In this document: one piece after another, positions 3,017 to 25,412 of the stretch
Numbering within the stretch: position 1 is the first letter of the stretch
Layout of the letters: each line of letters begins with the position of its first letter
Origin: a virus
Taxonomy: Duplodnaviria; Caudoviricetes
Virus record (IMG/VR): IMGVR_UViG_3300034170_000071
Location: 1 to 61,244 of that record
Strand: one strand, 5' to 3'
DNA length: 61,244 bases
Made by a program: the position numbers and the translations under genes
The notes under the pieces: generated by a model
Databases searched by the model: none
What the model saw: the letters and a program-made list of their open reading frames with translations, nothing else
Told to the model about the DNA's origin: nothing

Positions 3017-4036
3017 ATGTCTGCTGATAAAAATATGACCGGTGAACAAATTCAGCAGATTATGGATATGTTTTTGTACAAAGCTCTTGAGCCTCTTGTC
3101 CTGTACACGAACATTTTCGACCCACAAGTCGAATACCTCCTACTGCTGGTGGCGACCAACCGTAAGCGCAAACTTAGTTCGTTGGATCGCGGGGAGGCCG
3201 TTGAAAAACTAGCGGCGTACCTGAGCGTTCCTGATCGTCGTCAGAAATTTGATTTCATCCGGGCCGCCCGTGTGGAACGCTTTTTCATCCACAAGTTTCT
3301 GATTTCGTTTACCGAACAAAATAAAGACTACGTGAAAAAGTACAAAGACTTCTTGCTGACTCCTACCAAGGAAAAGCAGATTGCTTTGGACAAGTACGCG
3401 GTACAGGTCGGGATGTGTGAACGCTCTGCGCTGTATAACACGATCAAGATTTGTGACGCCTACCTGAAACGTTTTTACGTGTACCGAAATTCCGTCGTTG
3501 ACCATTATGTGAAGAGCGCCAACAAGTGGGCGAAGGCTCACGTGATCGGTGCGCAAGGCCGGTCGAGTTTCAAAGACCTTGTGCAGTCGATTATCAAGGC
3601 TGTGATCACGGCGATGGATAAATACGACAGTAGAAAAGGTGCCTTAACTTCCTATGTTACGTTTTGGACAAAAAACGCAATGAAGGCATCCAAAGAACAC
3701 GAATACGGCGTGGCCTACACTGTGCCGCAAGCACAGAAGAAAAAGCTATTCGAGGGGACTAGCCATCACGTCAATTTCAGCGTAAGTCTCGATACCCTTT
3801 ACGGTGACGATGACGACGAAAATTCAAGCATGGCCCTGCATTCCATTTTGGCGCCGGGGCACACGCTGGAAAAGGGAATCGAAGTAGAGCAGAGTCGCAC
3901 GCTGGTGCAGATGCTAGCGAAGAAAGTAGATCCGATGGGCATCGCTCGGTTAAGTCTAGATATTGGCGAGTATTTTACGCCAAGCGAACAGGCAATTATG
4001 CACCAGCACATGCTCGAAGAAAAAACTGTAAATTAA
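3017..4036 (+). CDS. phage sigma70-like RNA polymerase sigma factor
   Basis: Strong RBS AGGAGG; region 2 motif DLVQ...AMDKYDSRKGALTSYVTFWTKNAM (compare RpoD DLIQEG..AVDKF..RRGYKFSTYATWWIRQAI); SVSLDTLYGDDDD resembles region 3.2. Confidence 0.8.
   Translation: MSADKNMTGEQIQQIMDMFLYKALEPLVLYTNIFDPQVEYLLLLVATNRKRKLSSLDRGEAVEKLAAYLSVPDRRQKFDFIRAARVERFFIHKFLISFTEQNKDYVKKYKDFLLTPTKEKQIALDKYAVQVGMCERSALYNTIKICDAYLKRFYVYRNSVVDHYVKSANKWAKAHVIGAQGRSSFKDLVQSIIKAVITAMDKYDSRKGALTSYVTFWTKNAMKASKEHEYGVAYTVPQAQKKKLFEGTSHHVNFSVSLDTLYGDDDDENSSMALHSILAPGHTLEKGIEVEQSRTLVQMLAKKVDPMGIARLSLDIGEYFTPSEQAIMHQHMLEEKTVN
4022..4033 (+). promoter_or_regulatory. candidate phage promoter motif AAAACTGTAAAT
   Basis: Same motif recurs upstream of genes at 4821, 22917 and (minus strand) 51165. 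Confidence 0.55.
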
Positions 4037-4822: not shown

Positions 4823-4832
4823 AACTGTAAAT
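4821..4832 (+). promoter_or_regulatory. candidate phage promoter motif AAAACTGTAAAT upstream of SSB
   Basis: Intergenic exact copy of the motif at 4022 and 22917. Confidence 0.55.
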
Positions 4833-4892: not shown

Positions 4893-6110
4893 ATGGCCGC
4901 CGTTTTTAAAGGCATGGGTAGCATTCGTACCAACGCAGGTAAGGGTGATTCGCTCCGCTTGGATGAGGTTGTTGATATCATCCAGTGGCCGAAGAACAAG
5001 TATTTCCTGTTCCGCATTCTGCCAATCATGCCGCTCCAAGTCCGTCAGGTCTGGATCAAGCTGTGGGCCGGTGGCAAGGGCAAAGAAAAACGCGAAGTGA
5101 ACATCCCGCGTTACGCAATCGACTTCGACCCGGCTGATCCGGAAACCCCGAAAAAAGGCGTGAAGTGCCCGTACATGGCGCTCGCTGAAAAGTTCAAAGG
5201 CGAGAAAGAAAAACCAGTTCGTGCTGGTGACTTCTGGCTGTTCAACGTGATCGACCGTGACACGCAGGAAGAAGGCCCACCGCGCAAAGCGTCGAAGCCA
5301 ACCAAGGAAGAAAAGAAATCCGGTTTCAAGGATATCAATTCGGAAACTTGGACCCCGGTTCGCGTTGCCCGTCTGACCATGACTTCGATCAACCGACTGC
5401 AAGAATTGTCGGAAGAAAACAAGATCAAGTCGAAGAAAACCGGCAAGACCGCGCAGTTCGACGTATCCGATGCGAAGTATGGTTTCGATACGAAACTGAA
5501 ATTCAAACCGGACGCAGCAGGCACCGACAAATACACCATCGACAAAGCGGACGGCCCTACCCCGCTGACCGACGAAGAGCAAGGCTACCTGACGTGGAAC
5601 CTCACGGAAGAGCTGCTGGACGCAACCGGTCGTTTGACTGAAAAAGCAGCACGTGAAGACGTGAAGCGTATGGAAATCATCGGCGCCGAGGAAATCGACG
5701 ACGAAGACGAAGAAGACGAAGACGACAAGCCGAAGAAAAAGAAAGGCAAGTCCACTTCGCTCGACGACGATGACGACGAAAAGCCGAAGAAAAAGAAGAA
5801 ATCGAAACCGGCATTCGACGACGACGATGACGAAGCCGAAAAGCCGAAGAAAAAGAAATCTTCCAAGGTTGAAGAAAAGCCGAAGAAGAAATCTTCCAAG
5901 GTGAAGGAAGAGGAAGCGCCGAAGAAAAAGAAAAAGGCGAAGGTAGAGGAAGAAGCGCCGAAAAAGAAAAAGAAAAAGGTAGTCGAGGAAGCTCCGAAAA
6001 AGAAAAAGAAATCCTCCGACAAGGAAGAGAAAGGCGGCGCCAAAAAGAAAGTGAAAACTGCTGACAAGAAAGTCGGCAGCAAGAAGAAAAAGTCGGCTTG
6101 GGAAGACTGA
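4893..6110 (+). CDS. gp32-like single-stranded DNA-binding protein with a long Lys/Asp/Glu low-complexity tail
   Basis: FRILP, CPY, WLFNVIDR, FDVSDAKYGFD blocks resemble phage gp32-type SSB; directly upstream of UvsX/RecA; RBS GAGGA. Confidence 0.65.
   Translation: MAAVFKGMGSIRTNAGKGDSLRLDEVVDIIQWPKNKYFLFRILPIMPLQVRQVWIKLWAGGKGKEKREVNIPRYAIDFDPADPETPKKGVKCPYMALAEKFKGEKEKPVRAGDFWLFNVIDRDTQEEGPPRKASKPTKEEKKSGFKDINSETWTPVRVARLTMTSINRLQELSEENKIKSKKTGKTAQFDVSDAKYGFDTKLKFKPDAAGTDKYTIDKADGPTPLTDEEQGYLTWNLTEELLDATGRLTEKAAREDVKRMEIIGAEEIDDEDEEDEDDKPKKKKGKSTSLDDDDDEKPKKKKKSKPAFDDDDDEAEKPKKKKSSKVEEKPKKKSSKVKEEEAPKKKKKAKVEEEAPKKKKKKVVEEAPKKKKKSSDKEEKGGAKKKVKTADKKVGSKKKKSAWED
5697..6050 (+). repeat. coding low-complexity repeats (DDDDEKPKKKK / EEAPKKKKK units)
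   Basis: Repeated gacgacga and ccgaagaaaaagaaa units, visible in DNA and protein. Confidence 0.9.
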
Positions 6111-7747: not shown

Positions 7748-7954
7748 ATGGACGGCGCAAACATTATCCGCACTGGTACGCTGGAAAATATCAGCGGAGT
7801 AATTCAGAATGTCGAGGATGAAATTGATATTCTGGAACGCGCCGCGAATAAAATTCGGATGAACGAACTCTCTGGTGGGCGGGAACTCGCTTTGGCGATT
7901 ACCAACCTACAGCAGGGTTTGTTGTGGCTGAAAGATTCCAAATCCAAAATCTGA
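7748..7954 (+). CDS. Acb2/Tad1-like helical-hairpin protein (candidate nucleotide-signal sponge)
   Basis: GRELALAITNLQQGLLWL resembles the RE.A.A.T.L[EQ][EQ]..MW motif of the Acb2/Tad1 family. Confidence 0.55.
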   Translation: MDGANIIRTGTLENISGVIQNVEDEIDILERAANKIRMNELSGGRELALAITNLQQGLLWLKDSKSKI

Positions 7955-7969
7955 TGCTGTAAAAAGACT

Positions 7970-7991
7970 GGGGCCTTCGTGGCCCCTTTCT
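7970..7991 (+). terminator. intrinsic terminator
   Basis: GGGGCC-TTCGT-GGCCCC-TTTTC. Confidence 0.8.
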
Positions 7992-8018
7992 CAATTTTCA
8001 GGCCTAGTTGGTGTGCCC

Positions 8019-15298: not shown

Positions 15299-16028
15299 TA
15301 AACTGACGCGCAGTGAACACATCGACATTGTTGCAGGCAATACTCGCGTGGGGCCTAACGACGTGTTTCCAACGAAACGCGTTTTCCGCGTCGAACATCT
15401 TCCGGTGCCTAACGGAACTTTCCGTGCAGACCCGACCATTCCGCCTTGGCGATATGCAAACGCATTAGCCATGGACGTTCCCCAAGATATTCCCCGCACC
15501 ATGCACGAAAATATCCACTACTACGACGACCGAGAATCCCCGCTCGCAATGAACGAGTTCGAGGTTCCCGATTCTGAATTAGTGGATTTCAACGCGGAAA
15601 CTTCGCGGGAACAGGATCGCTACAAAAAACTTTTCTATAAAAACGCTGCGTCTCTTAGTGCTTTGCACGATGCAGCGGAATACGTTGAGGCTGCTTTGAG
15701 TAGCGGCCTCGATATCGAACTCGACATGGATCTAGCGCTGCTTAACGCCTTTGTCCCGCTGTCCCGGCTTGATGCCCTCGCTACTATGGTGCGCGCCACA
15801 TCACTGACTGGTGCGCAACAAGAATCCTACGTTGAAAAACTAACTGCATTCCTTGCTGAAAAAACTGTCCACGCTCTCGATAAATACGATGCGGGTGTGG
15901 CTGCACGCAAGGGATTTGAACATGCTAAGGAACTTTATGCACGCGTACTCTCGAAAGAACAATCTGCGCAAAACCAAGCCGACGCACCGCAAACAATGTG
16001 GGGCGTTAGAGGAACACGCCGACAATGA
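15270..16028 (+). CDS. hypothetical protein (position suggests a possible small terminase subunit)
   Basis: Start probably ATG 15270/15276; ATGA-coupled to TerL; helical C-terminal half; function inferred from position only. Confidence 0.55.
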   Translation: MTMGLPRSLDKLTRSEHIDIVAGNTRVGPNDVFPTKRVFRVEHLPVPNGTFRADPTIPPWRYANALAMDVPQDIPRTMHENIHYYDDRESPLAMNEFEVPDSELVDFNAETSREQDRYKKLFYKNAASLSALHDAAEYVEAALSSGLDIELDMDLALLNAFVPLSRLDALATMVRATSLTGAQQESYVEKLTAFLAEKTVHALDKYDAGVAARKGFEHAKELYARVLSKEQSAQNQADAPQTMWGVRGTRRQ

Positions 16029-18925
16029 AAATGAAGAAAACGAAAGGGGGCTTATTAGTCCCGGATAAGCGCATTGTCGTGCAGCAAGAAAACCCGTTCG
16101 ATTACCTTCTGAATTTGAAGGAACACGGACGGGTGCCTGCCCACGACGATATCGAACACATGGGCAAATCCGCTGCATCCATGATCACCAGCTTGGACGT
16201 GGATTCAGAAATCAACATTTCGAAAACCATTCGTGAATTGATGGATTCGAAAGTTGTAATCCCGAAAGACATGAAAATCGACGACGGGGATTTGCCGACT
16301 GCGAAGAACTTTTACGAATGGGTCACACAAGACAAATTCGGAACCATCGGTGATGAGCGGCCCTTTCTTGAGCAGTTGATTTGGGGCCTGATCGGATTTA
16401 ACGATGTGTGTTATTCGTGTTCGGATATGCAGTGGCTGCTGCACGATCACAAAGTTGACGACACGTATAACAAACTTGAGCGTAAAGTCGCGATTCTGGA
16501 AGAGGGCGTGTGTCCTCACTGTAAGCGCGGGCGATCAGAGGCCGTTAACGCAGGCCTCATGCCGTATTACAACGAACTGGCAATCAACGCCGGTCAACGT
16601 TGCGTAGTCGGTAGCACGCCAGTCCTGACGCGCTGGGGCCTGCTGCATATTGACGAAACAAACCCCAATGCACCGTTAGGGTTTTCTGATTTCACGGTCT
16701 CCATTCACAACGGCACCAAATTCGAAACCACGTCGCAGTATTTTGTCGCTGAACCAGAATTGGTTTATTCGGTAAATACTGCACGTGGTTTCTGTGTTAC
16801 TGGCACAACTGATCACCCAATCGACACGGAATTTGGTTTCGTGAAAATTGGTGAGCTGGTGCCCAACACGCAACTGCAAATGCACTACGGCCAGCGTTGT
16901 TTCGGTCAAGGTGTGTTGCGTGATACTCGACAACTAGGCTGCAACTTTTTTAATACGGTTCTTCCTCTTAATATTCGCACAGCGTGTGAATCGGATGTAA
17001 TCGAATTTCTGCAAGGCCTCTTCCGCGAAGCGCGGCGCGTATTTGTGGGCACCAGTGCCCTTCGCGACGTTAGCGCACTTCTTCTGAATGCTGGTTATCC
17101 TCACTCGATTGACGGCCCAGCAATTCAACTCGAAACTGCCACGTTTGAGAATCTGAAAACGGATTCTTGGATCGCTGGCACATTTACCGATAGCATCACC
17201 GATGTAACAGAATTCGGTGTGATGCCAACCTACGATTTTACCCTTCCCGCAACCCACCAATTCATCACGGCGGGTTTCCTGTCGCACAACTCCGGCAAAT
17301 CTCACACCGTGGGCACGTATCTAGCGCCCTATCACCTTCACCGTTTGCTCAAGCTGCAAAAACCTGCGCAGTTCTACGGCCTGTCGCGTACCACGATGCT
17401 GCAAGGGACGTTCGCGGCCCTGACCTATACGCAGGCAAAGGACACTCTGTGGACGCCGTTCTATGGCGCGCTGATTGAGTCCAATTGGTTCAAGCAATAC
17501 CATGGCATGCTCAAGCACTACGAAAACGTTTACGGCGAACGTCTTTTCAAACTGACTGATACCTTCGTCGATTACCGTGTTCGTGGTTTGCAGTATCACC
17601 CGATGGGGCCTGACAAGCGGGTAATGCGTGGACGGACACGCGTATTTTTCTCGATAGATGAAATCGCTTACTTCGATGCCGAAAAGGATTCGGGGAAAGT
17701 GAAAATCAACGCCTACGAAGTTTACGACGCATTGGCGAACAGCTTGCTTACCGTGCGCGGTGCTGCTGACGCTTTGATCGGTCGTGGCTTCGACGACGTG
17801 CTGTCAGCCTACGCAATGAACGTGAGTTCTCCCACCGCAAAAAACGACATGATCCATGTGCTGCTGGAACGTGCAAAAGAATCCCAATCCATTTACGGGA
17901 TTCACCGGCCAACGTGGGAAGTAAACCCGAACTTCAAACGCGATTCCAAAGTAATTATTGATGCGTACCGCAAAGATCCGGAATCTGCTGAAAAGAACTT
18001 CGGCGCCAACCCACCGTTGATTGCAAACCCGTTCCTCGCGAACCACAAGTTCATTATGGATACGGAAGACACGTCGCGGAAAAACCCGATTCGTCTTGTT
18101 ACCAGATTCATTAACAGCAAGAAACTCGGCCAGTCGCAGATGTATGCGCAAATCGAGAAAATCAAGAAGAGTGGCCGCCCGTCCATTCTCGCAATCGACG
18201 CAGGCGAGAAAGACAACAGCTTTTCTATGTGTGGCGGTACTATCGACGAAGACTTTAATTTAAACGTAGACCTTGTGTGCGAAATCATTCCGTTGCCGGG
18301 ATACCGCATTAACTTCACAAAGGTTTATTCGGAAGTAATCCTGCCGATCATGCAAGCGCGTAACGTAAAAGTGCTGCTGGCTGACCGATGGAACTCCCGA
18401 ACGTTTTTGAGCGATGCTGAAAGCGATATGGGTAATCCGGACGATGATTCGGAAACGCCTAGCTTTATCGCCAAGCAATACAGTTTGAAATACGTGGACA
18501 TGGTGGGCGTGCGCACGCGGATGGAACAGGGCCAAGTCCGGTTGCCTAAATCGGAAATCAAAGTGAATTCTTTGATCGACGCACTGGATTCGAACTACCG
18601 CGATTTCTACCACGAAAAACCAATTGCTCACTTGTACAAACAGATGTTTACCATTCGCGACCAGCTTAAAGGCGTTGGTAAAGGCGATGGTTATACCGAT
18701 GATAACTGGCGCGCAATGGCCCTGCTTTTATGGGGCTTGATGGAAGAGGAATTCATGGCTCTGCTCATGGCGGAACCTATGGATATGACTCTAGCGCGCC
18801 CTAATGCGCTGGCTGCTTCGAAACTCGGTGCAGGCGGTGGCATGTCGGTCGGTAATGGTGGCGGGGGCCTGACCACACAAAACGGTGCGCCACTCATGGT
18901 TATGAGTTCTGGCCGTACCCGTTAA
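16025..18925 (+). CDS. terL: large terminase subunit containing an intein
   Basis: Spliced Walker A AGQR|SGKS, Walker B FSIDEIAYF, NVSSP coupling motif, RNase H-like ILAIDAG...LADRWNS...DD. Confidence 0.9.
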   Translation: MKMKKTKGGLLVPDKRIVVQQENPFDYLLNLKEHGRVPAHDDIEHMGKSAASMITSLDVDSEINISKTIRELMDSKVVIPKDMKIDDGDLPTAKNFYEWVTQDKFGTIGDERPFLEQLIWGLIGFNDVCYSCSDMQWLLHDHKVDDTYNKLERKVAILEEGVCPHCKRGRSEAVNAGLMPYYNELAINAGQRCVVGSTPVLTRWGLLHIDETNPNAPLGFSDFTVSIHNGTKFETTSQYFVAEPELVYSVNTARGFCVTGTTDHPIDTEFGFVKIGELVPNTQLQMHYGQRCFGQGVLRDTRQLGCNFFNTVLPLNIRTACESDVIEFLQGLFREARRVFVGTSALRDVSALLLNAGYPHSIDGPAIQLETATFENLKTDSWIAGTFTDSITDVTEFGVMPTYDFTLPATHQFITAGFLSHNSGKSHTVGTYLAPYHLHRLLKLQKPAQFYGLSRTTMLQGTFAALTYTQAKDTLWTPFYGALIESNWFKQYHGMLKHYENVYGERLFKLTDTFVDYRVRGLQYHPMGPDKRVMRGRTRVFFSIDEIAYFDAEKDSGKVKINAYEVYDALANSLLTVRGAADALIGRGFDDVLSAYAMNVSSPTAKNDMIHVLLERAKESQSIYGIHRPTWEVNPNFKRDSKVIIDAYRKDPESAEKNFGANPPLIANPFLANHKFIMDTEDTSRKNPIRLVTRFINSKKLGQSQMYAQIEKIKKSGRPSILAIDAGEKDNSFSMCGGTIDEDFNLNVDLVCEIIPLPGYRINFTKVYSEVILPIMQARNVKVLLADRWNSRTFLSDAESDMGNPDDDSETPSFIAKQYSLKYVDMVGVRTRMEQGQVRLPKSEIKVNSLIDALDSNYRDFYHEKPIAHLYKQMFTIRDQLKGVGKGDGYTDDNWRAMALLLWGLMEEEFMALLMAEPMDMTLARPNALAASKLGAGGGMSVGNGGGGLTTQNGAPLMVMSSGRTR
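16601..17290 (+). mobile_element. intein (230 aa) in TerL Walker A with a degenerate LAGLIDADG remnant
   Basis: Starts CVVGSTPV, block B GTTDHPI, ends TYDFTLPATHQFITAGFLSHN followed by Ser; EFLQGLF remnant. Confidence 0.92.
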
Positions 18926-19020: not shown

Positions 19021-20316
19021 ATGTCGCTAAACCTGACCCAGTTCAAATGGTTTCAGTATGACGAAAACGCGGCGGAACTGGCCTTTGATCAGGATCGCCA
19101 CAATGAAGACTATGTGCTGGAACTTCACCCCGGAAATATTTACGGCGTAAAGAAACGTGCGCACGGTATTTTCGTCGTACACAAAAACAGTCCTGACATT
19201 CAGTTTTCGCTGAATGAAGCGGAATACATGCGGATCGTTACGCACTCCAAAGGCTGGTCTGGAAAGATCAAGCGCGTGGCAGTGAAAGCGGGCGTAGGTG
19301 GCATGGACAAACCTGTCGATAGCCTGCCTGACGGCTGGATTCGAATGCAGGTTGATAGCTCCAACCTCAACACCGTTATTTATGATTCGAAGCGCCAAGT
19401 TTTGTACGTCGCATTCCACAACGGTGCTTCGTGGGCATACGAAAATGTGACCAAGCGCGAATACGAAGAAATGGAAGCCGCTGAATCGCGTGGCCGTTTC
19501 TTTATCTACCGCATTAAATACGTGAAGCCTCAATACAAACTGGGGAACAACTTCGATCAGCCGCCGTATGACGTTACGCAAACCAGCCCAAGCGTTATGC
19601 CTGAAAAATCGCCTGCTGCAAAAGAAAAAGCGGCTTCGCTCCCGCCTGAAAAATCTGTAAAGAAACCAAAGGTAGCGGCATTTGAAATACCTGCTGGAAT
19701 GAAAGTTAATGGCCGTGCAAAAATCTCCATTACGCATTCCGGACACCCCGGCAAATCCACTGTTAAAACGTGGTCGGGTGTTGGGTTCGAATGGCTGGGT
19801 TCTAAAAATCCAGAGTTGGGCCGTCTGCTTGGGGATCTTGCCACCACGGGTAAGGCTGAATACGTTGACGATAAGGGCACTGCGTACCTGACTCTCGATG
19901 ATCAGATTTTGATTCCTGATGAAAACGCACCTGCCGCGAAAAAACCAGCGGCGAAATCTACAAAGAAACCAGCGTCGAAATCTACAAAACCTGCACTGCA
20001 AATTCCGCGTGGCGCTAGCGATACGTGGCTAGCTTCGGAAGAAAGTTATGTAGGTAAAAAACCGCTGGCTAAAAAAGTCATTGCTATTCTGAAGGGTGGT
20101 AAGGTCAACAGCGAATCCGATATGTTCTCGCTGCTGGAATCCCTGAAAGATGGCGGGTTGGCACTGTACGATAAGCGAGCGTTTAACACCGCTGCTAAAT
20201 CGCTGCTGTCTACGGCGGATGAATACGCATTCTCTGAAAAAGGTGCGTTGGCGTATAAGCCTGTCCGTGAACTGATCATGACAATGATCAAGAAATCCGC
20301 ACTTCATTTTATGTAG
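19021..20316 (+). CDS. KTSC-domain protein with novel N-terminal domain and Pro/Ala/Lys-rich linkers
   Basis: VDSSNL..V.YD.....LYVAFHNG..WAYENV....YEEM..AESRGRFF...IK is the KTSC signature. Confidence 0.8.
   Translation: MSLNLTQFKWFQYDENAAELAFDQDRHNEDYVLELHPGNIYGVKKRAHGIFVVHKNSPDIQFSLNEAEYMRIVTHSKGWSGKIKRVAVKAGVGGMDKPVDSLPDGWIRMQVDSSNLNTVIYDSKRQVLYVAFHNGASWAYENVTKREYEEMEAAESRGRFFIYRIKYVKPQYKLGNNFDQPPYDVTQTSPSVMPEKSPAAKEKAASLPPEKSVKKPKVAAFEIPAGMKVNGRAKISITHSGHPGKSTVKTWSGVGFEWLGSKNPELGRLLGDLATTGKAEYVDDKGTAYLTLDDQILIPDENAPAAKKPAAKSTKKPASKSTKPALQIPRGASDTWLASEESYVGKKPLAKKVIAILKGGKVNSESDMFSLLESLKDGGLALYDKRAFNTAAKSLLSTADEYAFSEKGALAYKPVRELIMTMIKKSALHFM
19942..19989 (+). repeat. 2 x 24-bp tandem repeat coding KPAAKSTK/KPASKSTK
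   Basis: aaaccagcggcgaaatctacaaag / aaaccagcgtcgaaatctacaaaa. Confidence 0.85.
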
Positions 20317-20323
20317 GAACAAA

Positions 20324-20962
20324 ATGCCAATCCTAGCCGATGCACTGGTCGAACCGATCAAAGAAGACGAAGGCCGTTATTTGCAGATGATTGCAGACGG
20401 CGATCTTGAAGAAAATGGCCTGTTCACTTTTAAGGGGATCGGGTACAAACTTTTTGTAGGCACTGACCGCCATATTCAGGGCCTGTCTGGTTGCCGGTTG
20501 ATCGTCCTGTTCAAAGGCGATGATTGCGTTTATTCCTGCTATTACAAAATGGCGGAAAATCAATACTTCGGAAACCGTGTGGTGCAAATAGAGGTTCGGC
20601 AATCTCAATCGTTGCCGGGCCTTGCACGTCATGTGATGCGCAATTATTTCCTGCGTCATTACGATTCAATTCGCACCGATCTTTCCAGTACGCCGCAAGG
20701 CCGGAACATGTGGCAGCAATTCTACATCGACCACCGGAAAGAAAAAGAACTGTTCTTTTATCAAGGACTGGTGAACATCGACCTACGAAAATCGGATGGG
20801 TCGAATAATCAGGATGCTTCCTGTCCAGAGCTGGTATTTGATGTGCGCGCTATGCGCAACGCATGCACCGTACTGCGTGAAGGGATGTGGCACGACAATA
20901 AGCAGGGTAACGTTGTGGTTATCTACGCATCCAATAAACCTCTATGGACAAAAACGAAATGA
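20324..20962 (+). CDS. divergent GNAT-fold-like phage protein
   Basis: PGLARHV...IRTDLSSTPQGRNMWQ resembles the C-terminal motif of phage GNAT-like proteins. Confidence 0.45.
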   Translation: MPILADALVEPIKEDEGRYLQMIADGDLEENGLFTFKGIGYKLFVGTDRHIQGLSGCRLIVLFKGDDCVYSCYYKMAENQYFGNRVVQIEVRQSQSLPGLARHVMRNYFLRHYDSIRTDLSSTPQGRNMWQQFYIDHRKEKELFFYQGLVNIDLRKSDGSNNQDASCPELVFDVRAMRNACTVLREGMWHDNKQGNVVVIYASNKPLWTKTK

Positions 20963-22899
20963 AATTGAGAAAAACCAATCGCACACCGATTGCGCAGTCA
21001 CCGCAAAATCGCAGTCCGCAATCCATGGGTACGTCGAAGCAGTATTACCCGAAAACCGATCAGCAAAAGATCGACGATTATCTGGCTACCGCAGGCAGCG
21101 GTGGCAACGCGCAAATGTCGCAGATGCCGATTGAAATCGACATTGACCCGATGTTGAAAGATATCGTGTTTTCCGAAGACCTTGAACAGAAAAAACTGGT
21201 CATGCGGATTTACACGGACATGTATTACAACGATTCCATCGGCGGTTCGATTGTCGATATCAAATCGCAGCTGATGTTCTCTGACTTCACCATTTCCGGA
21301 ATCATGGACCGCAAGGTTATGGATGATTTCATGGAAAACGTGGATCGTCTGGATATCCGCAACCTGATGCCCGATGTGGCAATCGACTACAACGTGAAAG
21401 GCGGTTTCATCGGATCGCTTTTGTACAACGAAAAATCGCAAGTGTTCTCGCGCATCATGCCGCACGCGTATGAAAACACAAAGATCGACATGCTACCTTT
21501 CCACGGCACCGATCCGCTGATTACTGTAGCGTTTCCCGAATACATCCGGGCGACCATGGCTTCCGATAGTCCACGCGTGAAAGCACTGCGTGAATTCCTC
21601 GGCGCCGACGTAATGAAACAGCTGTCAAACGAAGCGCTGGAACTCGATCAGAAATCCACCGTTTACGTTCCGCGCCGTTCGGGTAGCTCTTCGACTGGCA
21701 CCAGTTATTACCGCCGAATTATGCCGTGGTATTTGCTGGAGAAAAACCTTTTCCGTGGCACGCTTGTTCGTTCTGCCATGCGTCAAAAAGGTATTCTCCA
21801 CGTAACGCTTGACGGTGCGGGCGAATGGGAACCAACACTGGCCGATATGCAGGCCGTGATGGATATGTTCATGAACGCCGACGCTGACCCGGTTGGCGCC
21901 GTAGTTGCAACACGTGGCGGTATTTCCACCGAGGAAATTCGCGATCCACAAGGCGGTTGGACGATCTTCGATAACAAGGATGCGATTGATTCGATTAAAA
22001 TGAAAGCACTCGGTATTTCCGATGCATTCCTTTCGGGTGACGCGACTTATGCGAACGGCGATACTTCGACCTCGTTCTTTATCGACGCAATTCGTACCGA
22101 ACGTGATTGGCTGACCCGCAAGACTTTGTACAGCCGAATTTTCCCGATGATTTCCGCGCTGAAAGGCTACACGCTGAACCGCGACGGCAAATTGATTACT
22201 CGCGGTAACTCGCTGGATAAACTCGATCCGATGGGCAGTTTCGAACGGCTCAACGACGGCACCCGTTTGTTGATTCCGACGATCCATTGGGAAAAGACTT
22301 TGCAGCCGGAAGGCGATCAGCAATACATGGATATGCTGCAAGCCATGTCGGACAAAGGTGTACCGGTTCCCCTGCGCGTTATGGCAGCGGCTGGCGGCCT
22401 GAACCTTGACCGTTTGCTGGCTGGTCAAGATTCCGATTTGCTGGCGCAAGAATCGCTTTATCAATACCAGAAGAAAATCAAAGACCTCAAAAAGAAATAC
22501 GGTATTGATGACGCCGCTGATATGGGCGGTGGTGGTATGGGCGGTGGCGGTTTCGCTTCGACAGCAGCAAGCTATGACCATCAAATGATGGCTATGGCGC
22601 GCACTAATCCCGGCCTGTTCAATGCATTCCGTGCTGAAGCGCAATCGCACTACAACCTAAACCTCGACCGCACACAATCCGATGTTCTGGCCCGTAATAA
22701 CGGTCAAATCGTTGGCTTGGCGAATCGTGAATTTGGTGAAATGTCCGAGGCTTATGGCTATACGCACGACGGTAAGAAACGTCCACTTTCCAACCAAAAG
22801 CTGGCGCATGAACGTCAGAATGAAAAGATCGTTAAAATGCTTCGCAATCGTGATGCACAAACCGGCGTCGGCGCAAAGCGTTCGCGCACACGTTTGTAA
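20959..22899 (+). CDS. portal protein
   Basis: ~645 aa near terL; portal-like SYYRRIMPWYLLEK.L...RQKGILHVTL, ALGIS.AFLSGDATYAN, PTIHWEK. Confidence 0.75.
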   Translation: MKLRKTNRTPIAQSPQNRSPQSMGTSKQYYPKTDQQKIDDYLATAGSGGNAQMSQMPIEIDIDPMLKDIVFSEDLEQKKLVMRIYTDMYYNDSIGGSIVDIKSQLMFSDFTISGIMDRKVMDDFMENVDRLDIRNLMPDVAIDYNVKGGFIGSLLYNEKSQVFSRIMPHAYENTKIDMLPFHGTDPLITVAFPEYIRATMASDSPRVKALREFLGADVMKQLSNEALELDQKSTVYVPRRSGSSSTGTSYYRRIMPWYLLEKNLFRGTLVRSAMRQKGILHVTLDGAGEWEPTLADMQAVMDMFMNADADPVGAVVATRGGISTEEIRDPQGGWTIFDNKDAIDSIKMKALGISDAFLSGDATYANGDTSTSFFIDAIRTERDWLTRKTLYSRIFPMISALKGYTLNRDGKLITRGNSLDKLDPMGSFERLNDGTRLLIPTIHWEKTLQPEGDQQYMDMLQAMSDKGVPVPLRVMAAAGGLNLDRLLAGQDSDLLAQESLYQYQKKIKDLKKKYGIDDAADMGGGGMGGGGFASTAASYDHQMMAMARTNPGLFNAFRAEAQSHYNLNLDRTQSDVLARNNGQIVGLANREFGEMSEAYGYTHDGKKRPLSNQKLAHERQNEKIVKMLRNRDAQTGVGAKRSRTRL

Positions 22900-22915
22900 T
22901 TTATTGATAGCAGCC

Positions 22916-22933
22916 AAAAACTGTAAATACAGT
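22916..22933 (+). promoter_or_regulatory. candidate phage promoter AAAAACTGTAAATAC driving the putative ncRNA
   Basis: Exact copy of the motif at 4022/4821, just upstream of the structured region. Confidence 0.55.
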
Positions 22934-22937
22934 ACAT

Positions 22938-23140
22938 GGAATAGAGGGATGTTCGGCACTAGCCAGACTTAAAGGCCGGGGATCGGAGGTAGGCGCTACG
23001 GCTCAGCTAGCCAATACGAATGCCTGCCTCCACTTGGCCCATACTGAAACGCGGAACATTCCCTCGATTCTCCTTTTGCTTAGGCAAAGGTGGTACAACC
23101 CAACCGCGCCCTGTGAGCAATTGCACGGCGCGGTTTTTTC
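22938..23140 (+). ncRNA. putative structured non-coding RNA (rod with central bubble, hairpin, terminator)
   Basis: 22939-22954 pairs with 23054-23070; 22974-22980 with 23033-23039; 22985-22995 with 23021-23031; hairpin 23072-23090; terminator 23102-23140. Confidence 0.6.
23102..23140 (+). terminator. intrinsic terminator
   Basis: AACCGCGCC...GGCGCGGTT-TTTTC. Confidence 0.8.
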
Positions 23141-23156
23141 GTTTCTGGAGCCGATT

Positions 23157-23456
23157 ATGTGGGACGAATATACATCCGAAGAACAACTGAAATTCCTGAC
23201 TGAATTATGCAGAGTTTCCAGCGGCTATCCGACGATTGATCACGAGCTGGTTTATCTCGGTGAAGCAGCCCTGACCAATAAACAACGCCTGCTTTATGTG
23301 GATCACATGAGTGGCACGATTGCAGACCACACCTATCGCCGTATTGATTCCGATCACCCGGACGCGGCCTCTCATTACTACTTCAATATGATGCATGCTG
23401 ATATTGAATTGCGTGCGAAAATGATTTGGTGTGCAGTAACGGGGAACGCACCGTAA
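23157..23456 (+). CDS. hypothetical protein
   Basis: GGAG RBS at 23147-23150 before ATG 23157; the upstream TTG start would cross a terminator. Confidence 0.65.
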   Translation: MWDEYTSEEQLKFLTELCRVSSGYPTIDHELVYLGEAALTNKQRLLYVDHMSGTIADHTYRRIDSDHPDAASHYYFNMMHADIELRAKMIWCAVTGNAP

Positions 23457-24232
23457 TGGCCGGTTCACCGCTTAACTCGACAAAGCATTTGCAACGGCAG
23501 GGCCTCGATTCGAAAATCATTCACGCTGGCGTTGTGGTGGATAACCTCGACCCGCGCAAGAATGGCCGCGTGCGTGTACGTGTTCCCGGTATCTTTCCGG
23601 ACGCAATTCCTGATAAGCATTTGCCGTGGGCATTGCCGATGAATCAGGACTACGCAACGAACGAGGATCAGCCTACGCGTTCCGGTTTTATGAACGTTCC
23701 GCCAGTCGGTGCAAAGGTTGGCGTTCGCTTCCCAAAAGGCGATCCGCACAAGCCTGAATTAGCCCCGTATCCCGGCGACAAAAAGACCATTTCTTCGTTG
23801 GCCTCGGTCAATTATCCATTCCGCGTTGTAATGGAATTAGAGAATGGTTGTGCCATTATTGCCGATAAGAAAACCAACGAAGTATTCGTCACTAATCCGG
23901 GCGATGCACACTTTGTTTTCCTCGGTGATTACAGCAAAACGATTGTAGGTTCCTGCACAGAAATCATCACCGGTTCAAAGGGTGATGTTCCCGGCTATTT
24001 GACGAATGCTTCCAACAGCAAAATCAGCGAAGTGCAGGCAAAGTCTGCTGGCGGTGTGAGCAAAGGGAAGGGCAACAAATACGAAAAGATTACCGGTAAT
24101 TACACGCTGGAAATCGGTGGCAATCGAATCGTTAAAGTCAATGGTAATGACCAGCTATCTGTCGGTCGTAACCGTGACGAAAAAGTCGGTGGCAACCACA
24201 AAATTCAATCCTCCCGTTCCGATACGAACTGA
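23456..24232 (+). CDS. baseplate hub/spike protein (gp5/VgrG-like OB fold plus beta-helix)
   Basis: GVVVDNLDP..NGRVRVRVP..LPWA..PPVGAKV.V.F..GDP..P; C-terminal 8-residue [IV]xG[ND] repeats. Confidence 0.88.
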   Translation: MAGSPLNSTKHLQRQGLDSKIIHAGVVVDNLDPRKNGRVRVRVPGIFPDAIPDKHLPWALPMNQDYATNEDQPTRSGFMNVPPVGAKVGVRFPKGDPHKPELAPYPGDKKTISSLASVNYPFRVVMELENGCAIIADKKTNEVFVTNPGDAHFVFLGDYSKTIVGSCTEIITGSKGDVPGYLTNASNSKISEVQAKSAGGVSKGKGNKYEKITGNYTLEIGGNRIVKVNGNDQLSVGRNRDEKVGGNHKIQSSRSDTN

Positions 24233-24864: not shown

Positions 24865-25043
24865 TGGCTTCTGTCGAATACACACGGACATTTCTTTCTG
24901 GTGAATTGCTGGCAGGTAATCGTCGCGGTGATCCACACGGCATTCGTTGGATCAAAGAACCAATACCAACCGAGAATAAAAAACGAATGACTCGCGCAGT
25001 CGGGCGTTACCTCTCTGATGATCCATCCACCTACATGAAATAA
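24864..25043 (+). CDS. 59-aa hypothetical protein (below ORF-track cutoff)
   Basis: TAATG-coupled; MASVEYTRTFLSGELLAGN...STYMK; ends at a terminator. Confidence 0.55.
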   Translation: MASVEYTRTFLSGELLAGNRRGDPHGIRWIKEPIPTENKKRMTRAVGRYLSDDPSTYMK

Positions 25044-25064
25044 CCCACTTAATCGTGGGTTTTT
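25042..25064 (+). terminator. intrinsic terminator
   Basis: AACCCAC-TTAATC-GTGGGTT-TTT. Confidence 0.75.
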
Positions 25065-25094
25065 GTGTTTTCCCGCTAATTTAATGGTAAGTTT

Positions 25095-25412
25095 ATGACT
25101 AAACTATATGAACCACGTGTGCTTGGGGCAGGCATTACAATCGAAGAAAAGCCAACGCTGCCAAACCACGGCGCTCGGCTGGTGGACGTTCAGAGCTACG
25201 CCACAATTACGAAGGCACAAATAACCAACGTATTAGAAGTGGCGATCCCTGTTCGTTCTCCTGATTATATCGTTCAATGCTTTGACCAAACGAAACAAAT
25301 CATTTATCCGGATAGTGTCCAAGAAGTCGGTGCGAATATCGAGATTAAATTCCTCGAACCTCAATCTGGCGAAGTAAGGGTGCTGTTCGTCGGAGGCGAC
25401 AGTGGCGACTAA
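25095..25412 (+). CDS. putative virion structural protein
   Basis: Beta-rich; VQCFD...IYPD.V......IEIKF..PQSGEVRV typical of fibre-associated modules; preceded by TAATTT. Confidence 0.55.
   Translation: MTKLYEPRVLGAGITIEEKPTLPNHGARLVDVQSYATITKAQITNVLEVAIPVRSPDYIVQCFDQTKQIIYPDSVQEVGANIEIKFLEPQSGEVRVLFVGGDSGD

Follow-up and report, generated by a model that had tools for sequence, protein, structure and literature searches.

The window analyzed here, 61,244 nt in length, is a 61-kb piece of a virus record (IMGVR_UViG_3300034170_000071) with an estimated completeness of 21%. Its nearest named relatives are the Pseudomonas phage HRDY3, which covered 98% of a 6-kb query from the window at 74.6% identity, and Lu11, which covered 74% of the same query at 70.5% identity; PaBG was more remote than both in this comparison. 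The large terminase gene (16025-18925, 966 aa) is followed by two genes that carry no functional annotation and then by the portal gene (20944-22899, + strand, 651 aa), which was taken from the open reading frame list and matched the PHROG portal protein with an E value of 1.5e-258. After a gap of 257 nt comes the first gene of the tail/baseplate block, a 99-aa gene on the + strand (ATG at 23157, ending at 23456) for which no Pfam or PHROG family was matched, and then a baseplate-hub-like gene (23456-24232) and tail-fibre-like genes. The 99-aa gene has its own ribosome site, GGAG at 23147-23150, which agrees with the position (23147) given in a first-pass annotation made from the letters of the window. 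Elsewhere, the window encodes a sigma factor with a sigma-70 region 2 (3017-4036; Sigma70_r2, 27.8 bits). Phages of the Lu11/HRDY3 group are described as encoding sigma70-like factors, and that source lists no phage polymerase core for them (PMC7412058), from which we infer that these phages use the host core polymerase, an enzyme that would obey intrinsic terminators.

The gap between the portal and 99-aa genes had been annotated as a self-contained, rod-shaped non-coding RNA, and each element listed in that annotation was located in the sequence at the position given. When 22900-23145 was folded as the + strand, the predicted energy was -92.7 kcal/mol, compared with an average of -70.94 over shuffled sequences (sd 4.54, z -4.79; none of 200 shuffles equaled it), and the fold consisted of the same rod, separate hairpin and terminator. 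The - strand of this segment had a z of -2.56, with 2 of 200 shuffles as stable. The homologous gaps also folded strongly (z -3.91 in HRDY3 and -3.43 in Lu11, none of 200 shuffles being equal in either). Another gap that folds strongly, at approximately 7748-8003 (z -3.73, coordinates by eye), appears to contain an ORF of about 67 codons from ATG 7748 followed by a G+C-rich hairpin and U-run, and probably represents a small gene, not an RNA.

All parts of the fold lie on the + strand. In the minimum-energy structure, the closing stem, P1, pairs 22938-22957 with 23051-23071 (22939-22954 with 23054-23070 as first annotated) and leads into an asymmetric junction loop of about 20 and 14 nt. The 5' strand of this loop, J5 (22955-22974), was delimited from an alignment of ten sequences and a variant-by-variant dissection; it holds an invariant UCG at the P1 end, then a conserved GCCA(A/G)(C)AC motif (alignment columns T39, C40, G41, C49 and A51 are invariant), and is able to form a mini-hairpin, GGC-ACUA-GCC. 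The 3' strand, J3 (23040-23053), carries a conserved AAUAnUGA motif, in which A127, A129, T131 and A133 of the same alignment are invariant and G132 is nearly so. Beyond the loop is a variable inner arm (22975-23039) made of two stems (22975-22981 with 23033-23039, and 22985-22995 with 23021-23031) and an apical hairpin (23000-23012). The rod is followed by a separate, sequence-conserved 18-nt hairpin, P4 (23072-23090), seen in both the fold and the alignment, and by an intrinsic terminator (23102-23140) with a 9-bp G+C-rich lower stem, a 5-bp upper stem, a GCAA loop and, directly after the hairpin, a run of six U residues. The terminator ends 7 nt ahead of the ribosome site of the 99-aa gene.

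Upstream of the rod lies the motif AAAAACTGTAAATA (22916-22929, + strand; AAAAACTGTAAAT was located at 22916-22928), which is of the phage middle/late type and was taken to resemble a -10 element. When up to one mismatch was allowed, ACTGTAAATA occurred seven times in the window compared with 2.39 expected, a count reached in none of 100 shuffles. The exact CTGTAAAT sites of the window immediately precede start codons or fall at the ends of genes, and on the + strand no further exact copy was present in the window downstream of 22921. In a 50-kb stretch of Lu11, CTGTAAAT was found 11 times on the gene strand and not once on the opposite strand; the Lu11 record labels the homologous site a "putative middle/late promoter", and four such sites are labeled in this stretch. 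A strong hairpin with a T-run follows within 300 nt at only one of the four + strand CTGTAAAT sites in the window and at only one of the 11 in Lu11. Given its enrichment, the Lu11 label and the sigma factor gene, the phage motif that had been pointed out at 22916 is a plausible phage promoter. At the copy located at 4026, a ribosome site begins 8 nt past the motif, so that the motif must work in the manner of a -10 element, with transcription beginning only a few bases further on; the transcript that concerns us here would then start about 7 nt past CTGTAAATA, near 22936, 1–3 nt before the closing stem.

Several further observations were made on these signals. The CTGTAAAT copy at 4026-4033 adjoins the end of the sigma factor gene, and another copy, at 4825, lies ahead of a gene starting at 4893. 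A heptamer, TAATTTA, follows the portal coding region (22897-22903) in all examined relatives that keep the intergenic region; it is conserved in distant relatives and in Lu11 (L062, 27929 and 30097), where it is not a stop codon, and it recurs in the window at 25077-25083, upstream of the gene at 25095 and past a terminator (25042-25061). The heptamer could represent a second regulatory signal, its counts in the window (six on the + strand and one on the - strand) being too low for statistics. X1, a metatranscriptome and the only RNA library in which the stretch is present, contains 92% of the words in the form of contigs, from which neither RNA ends nor levels can be read; one contig of 12.9 kb with a depth of 27.4 covers 20000-23331 and contigs further downstream have depths of 3.6-9.1, values that, coming from contigs, do not give transcript levels.

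A portal-based search of viral contigs identified 20 loci, and scans with the terminator pattern identified 16 stretches in viral contigs, each contig having the terminator once, and 11 in metagenome contigs, seven of which were unrelated bacterial terminators. One match to the pattern of small hairpin and terminator, L029, was rejected as coding sequence. After removal of duplicates, there were ten distinct rod-bearing versions (the window, L004, L005, HRDY3, L010, Lu11, L036, L011, L014 and L016), all from Lu11/HRDY3-like jumbo phages and all with the same order: promoter motif, P1, conserved junction loops, variable arm, P4 and terminator. In metagenome runs X2, X23 and X24, contigs share the terminator (23102-23148) almost exactly and have a P4-like hairpin upstream and different flanks, indicating that more variants of the module exist. 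Three unrelated bacterial contigs (L031, L032 and L040) have the same lower stem and U-run with another loop, after metabolic genes; this likeness is explained either by chance or by a type of terminator that is common in hosts.

P1 was present in all ten versions with 11–21 pairs, and the sequences of its arms are unrelated between subgroups. Compensatory changes in homologs, which had been proposed as a check on the annotated structure, were indeed found. They affected 18 of 44 pairs in an alignment of five sequences and 20 of 44 in one of six, where the shuffled mean was 10.7, none of 500 shuffles reached 20 and slid controls gave 3–5; the six-sequence alignment was fitted to a model and leans to that model's structure, and the slid controls and the independent five-sequence result concur with it. 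By helix, 13 of 21 pairs of P1 and 6 of 10 of helix 3 were compensatory in the six sequences, and 4 of 7 pairs of helix 4 (P4) were invariant. RNAalifold, applied to a MAFFT alignment of the ten sequences, returned P4 and the terminator only, because the P1 arms are out of register there. A covariance model built from the five sequences (R1) recognized L016 (26.6 bits, E 2.5e-5) and failed to recognize the rods of Lu11, L036, L011 and L014 (at most 13.9 bits, partial and in some cases on the wrong strand); these four are regarded as probable homologs from their position, their layout and short motifs read by eye.

We also compared the rate of change of the rod with that of the portal gene. In four comparisons, identity in the rod and at four-fold sites of the portal gene was nearly the same (0.746 and 0.751, 0.720 and 0.716, 0.511 and 0.504, 0.559 and 0.561), and in the remaining four pairs the two values differed by 0.05–0.11. 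The rod thus drifts at the synonymous rate of the portal gene while its pairing is kept, so it is under selection for pairing and for a few loop nucleotides. P4 and the terminator were 0.92–0.97 identical in seven of eight comparisons and 0.68 identical to Lu11. Where they are 92–97% identical, the four-fold codon sites are 50–85% identical, so that selection on the 3' hairpins acts on their sequence. The terminator that follows the terminase gene, taken as a control, could be aligned in the two closest relatives only, at 79% identity. We consider it highly probable that the rod and P4 form a real, selected RNA structure, in line with the self-contained non-coding element first proposed for the + strand.

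Covariation by itself would also fit an inverted repeat that acts as DNA. Such an element, having no function as RNA, could serve as a pac site, promote recombination as a hot spot or be what is left of a small mobile insertion. Several features of the locus are compatible with it: the rod immediately follows the portal gene, with the large terminase gene no more than about 4 kb upstream, it is either there or missing as a clean unit, and its folding energy has no consistent strand preference, the + strand being more stable in six of the ten variants and the - strand in four. The abundance of G-U pairs, which the first-pass annotation had taken as a sign of structure at the RNA level, did not hold up, as only 5 of 45 pairs in the rod of the window are G-U. 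With so few G-U pairs and energies split in this way, the assignment to the + strand rests on the promoter and the U-tract. We nonetheless find a DNA-level element very unlikely. The window and three complete genomes each have a single copy of the rod (the match in Lu11 being weak). Its arms vary and its inner loops are conserved, the opposite of what transposon ends show, and no target-site duplication was seen by eye. In addition, it lies exactly between the promoter and the terminator on the coding strand, with no anomaly in G+C content or skew. A miniature inverted-repeat transposable element was likewise rejected, since there is one copy per genome and the arms are unrelated between phages, as would not be the case for a multiplying inverted-repeat element.

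Searches for known families did not yield an identity for the rod, in line with the annotation, which had recognized no known family in it. No Rfam family matched the whole window at the gathering score. At E≤10, the segment 22700-23350 gave only two chance matches to mir-8338, both on the terminator, and none to 6S RNA; at E≤5, no family, 6S RNA and phi29 pRNA included, matched the loci of eight relatives. The rod, about 135 nt long, therefore belongs to no Rfam family. A scan for tRNA and tmRNA found none, and no compositional signal of a replication origin (skew switch or G+C anomaly) was observed. Translation from TTG 23034, raised earlier as an observation that would speak against an RNA, was rejected because the in-frame extension is shifted or stopped in relatives, which indicates that the region is non-coding. 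Protein families were searched in the window and three complete relatives (four records). A retron non-coding RNA was discarded, as reverse transcriptase (PF00078) was found in none of the four records, and so was a bacterial Y RNA, as there was no Rfam match and no TROVE protein above the cut-off in any of the four (a single sub-threshold match of 13.6 bits in Lu11 has an internal stop). Two ideas examined by eye were also dropped: pairing of J3 with the U-run or ribosome site, for which one suggestive pair in the window and HRDY3 is not kept in other variants, and an RsmA sponge acting through GGA motifs, most of which are within stems. A literature search on HRDY3 returned no papers.

The phyletic distribution of the rod is different from that of the signals around it. 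L006 and L007-9 lack both the rod and P4, and in them about 11 nt separate the promoter motif from the same terminator; P4 was found only where the rod exists. In the outgroup loci L020 and L023 (57–58% portal identity), the motif, the hairpin, the U-run, the ribosome site and ATGTGGGA are kept, again with no rod. Here, the cassette lies directly ahead of the homolog of the 99-aa gene and extra genes part it from the portal gene. The placement of the rod directly after the portal gene, part of the original description, is thus correct for the window, but nothing except position ties the rod to the portal gene, as the cassette in L020 and L023 stays with the downstream gene. In L017 and L022 the whole intergenic region is gone, and L018 has three unrelated hairpins and the terminator. 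On comparison of these loci, the conserved core consists of the promoter, the hairpin with its U-run, the ribosome site and the first tail-module gene, and the rod with P4 is a single-copy accessory insert between the putative start and the terminator hairpin. This nature of the rod, an optional insert within an older promoter-terminator-ribosome site cassette, is invisible from the sequence of the window alone.

In a tree of portal proteins, the rod-less L006 and L007 lie inside the rod-bearing clade as the sister group of HRDY3 and L010 (support 99/98), L017 is the sister of L016, and L018, L020 and L023 branch outside. The most parsimonious history would be a single gain of the rod with at least two subsequent losses, a pattern that recombination could blur. 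As the rod was lost in two lineages and the whole region in L017 and L022, the rod is dispensable. Two observations on neighboring hairpins were made in the same loci. In L011, L014 and L016, another small hairpin, ending in a T-rich tail, is visible by eye about 20–60 nt past the portal stop codon and before the promoter motif, so that the portal transcript may end ahead of the promoter, in which case the conserved terminator would serve the promoter's transcript only. In L023, a second hairpin and U-run with CTGGAG and an ATG (6040-6110) precedes a different gene and resembles the 3' half of the cassette; no CTGTAAA motif was found in the 240 nt upstream of it.

These data bear on the two roles suggested for the RNA at first, a packaging-related RNA and a 6S-like RNA. 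In favor of an RNA that joins the portal motor, as in phi29, there are only the position of the rod beside the portal gene and a palindromic AGCU in its apical loop, seen in the groups of the window and of Lu11; phi29 pRNA (RF00044) is also a phage-encoded structured RNA of similar size. However, the pRNA models were not matched, packaging is of the terminase type here, with a 966-aa large terminase encoded, and no interlocking loops are conserved. The apex varies between subgroups, its palindrome being missing from HRDY3, L010, L011, L014 and L016, close relatives have no rod, and the cassette of L020 and L023 is away from the portal. A phi29-like packaging role is therefore extremely improbable.

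The other suggestion belongs to a broader class, a stand-alone, shape-bound RNA acting in trans, either as a 6S-like decoy of the polymerase holoenzyme or as a protein sponge, whose product would be the terminated 205-nt RNA and for which the position before the tail genes would be incidental. The rod resembles 6S RNA (SsrS, RF00013) in that a closing stem leads through a large central loop, asymmetric here, to an apical arm, a general shape present in all ten variants, and its shape is kept while its sequence drifts at a neutral rate. 6S RNAs likewise keep their shape while their sequence drifts. The conserved loop nucleotides suggest a specific ligand, the strong terminator and U-tail at the 3' end recall small RNAs of the Hfq type, and the phage would redirect the host polymerase through its own sigma factor. 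On the other hand, no 6S covariance model matched the window (E≤10) or eight relatives (E≤5). The closing stem is short (16–21 bp) and nearly perfect, whereas those of 6S RNAs are long and bulged; over the ten variants it has just 11–21 near-perfect pairs and is followed by two extra 3' hairpins. The rod would differ further in being a phage-encoded, accessory product of a late promoter, with polymerase binding as a hypothetical property. A decoy of the holoenzyme would also tie up the core enzyme on which the phage depends, and close relatives dispense with the rod. Thus, the 6S-like role gained no positive support, and a trans-acting RNA of any of these kinds is, in our view, rather unlikely.

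Processing of the transcript offers another explanation. The P1 duplex could be cut by host RNase III, which would part portal read-through RNA from tail RNA and set their half-lives. P1 is mostly unbroken and selected for pairing rather than sequence, and the element is intergenic, at the border between the packaging/head and tail modules. RNase III sites of T7 are irregular hairpins with an internal loop, and the T7 sites (R1.1) and the lambda N-leader site share with the rod an irregular, shape-constrained intergenic hairpin with an internal loop at an operon border. RNase III genes were found above the cut-off in none of the four records, which is neutral with regard to this explanation because the host has one. 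In contrast to those sites, the rod is about twice as long and its loops are conserved in sequence, and with the promoter directly ahead it would form the 5' end of a primary transcript, not an internal site; cleavage is hypothetical. The conserved J5/J3 loop and P4 would be unnecessary for RNase III, and L011–L016 already carry a separate hairpin and T-run (by eye) after the portal stop codon. This explanation is unlikely as well.

The arrangement as a whole has a close parallel in lambda. At lambda PR'-tR', and at StxS of Stx phages, a late promoter gives a transcript of about 200 nt that runs into a strong terminator directly before the late structural genes, and the present locus is laid out likewise, its promoter being followed by a short leader and then by a terminator immediately ahead of a late operon. 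The lambda "6S" RNA was observed as bands of approximately 194 and 121 nt and is described as stable, processed and Hfq-associated; its terminator is overcome by Q together with NusA, and StxS is a 74-nt RNA at the same position, according to a report on these RNAs (bioRxiv 10.1101/2024.10.31.621285). There was no sequence or model similarity between the lambda locus and ours, where the promoter is of the phage-sigma type and the body of the RNA is a covarying rod that is wholly missing in some relatives. A Q-like antiterminator was not found in the four records: Phage_antitermQ (PF06530) and Antiterm (PF03589) had no match in any of them, and neither did NusG, so that regulated read-through has no factor assigned to it. 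By analogy of layout with PR'-tR', the cassette may be read as a promoter-proximal gate.

Beside the structure, covariation, copy number and phyletic and conservation patterns described above, the start site, termination and every function are what we infer. Our preferred reading, which we put forward tentatively and at somewhat less than an even chance, is that the rod is the body of a promoter-proximal transcript of about 205 nt and, on read-through, also the leader of the tail/baseplate operon. A middle/late promoter dependent on the phage sigma factor would start an RNA about 7 nt past CTGTAAATA, with the rod at its extreme 5' end, and some 205 nt on the transcript would meet the strong and unusually sequence-conserved intrinsic terminator. 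The host core RNA polymerase with the phage sigma factor would then terminate most of its transcripts as short RNAs of about 205 nt, and when polymerases read through, the rod would serve as the leader of the tail operon. The cassette of promoter, hairpin, U-run and ribosome site would be an old conserved gate before the tail/baseplate genes, and the rod and P4 a later accessory, selected mostly for shape. Selection on shape, a 5' end within a long duplex and a conserved loop together suggest an accessory module for protein binding or for stability and processing. The small, sequence-specific junction loop probably binds a protein, and the rod probably tunes RNA stability, processing or read-through. 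A pure leader or stabilizer role leaves the conserved junction loop unexplained.

In another reading, the rod would be a new kind of phage RNA directed at the polymerase, either in cis, helping it pass the terminator as put RNAs do, or in trans, capturing holoenzyme like 6S RNA. The put RNAs of HK022 consist of two short hairpins of about 70 nt and, like the rod, are structured RNAs that immediately follow a phage promoter and precede a terminator that has to be passed for the genes beyond it to be expressed. The rod has no similarity to these RNAs, and rod-less relatives keep the same terminator. We regard a polymerase-directed RNA as quite unlikely. If it were true, the junction loop would be the contact site; in the cis version the rod would let polymerase into a tail operon of about 20 kb, in the trans version it would capture host holoenzyme late in infection, and the rod-less relatives would display the ancestral, unmodified gate.

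To our knowledge, gene regulation in Lu11/PaBG-type jumbo phages has hardly been studied. In our preferred reading of the locus, a promoter-proximal transcript that doubles as an operon leader, a single conserved promoter would fire into a strong, sequence-invariant terminator ahead of the tail/baseplate genes, which would provide a testable handle on the timing or dosing of late gene expression in these phages. The arrangement itself is of a known kind; what is new is the RNA family, a covariation-supported RNA with no Rfam match that lies between promoter and terminator in most members of the Lu11-like clade. The rod is a well-supported candidate to join the few phage-encoded structured RNAs, and its natural rod-less relatives are ready controls.
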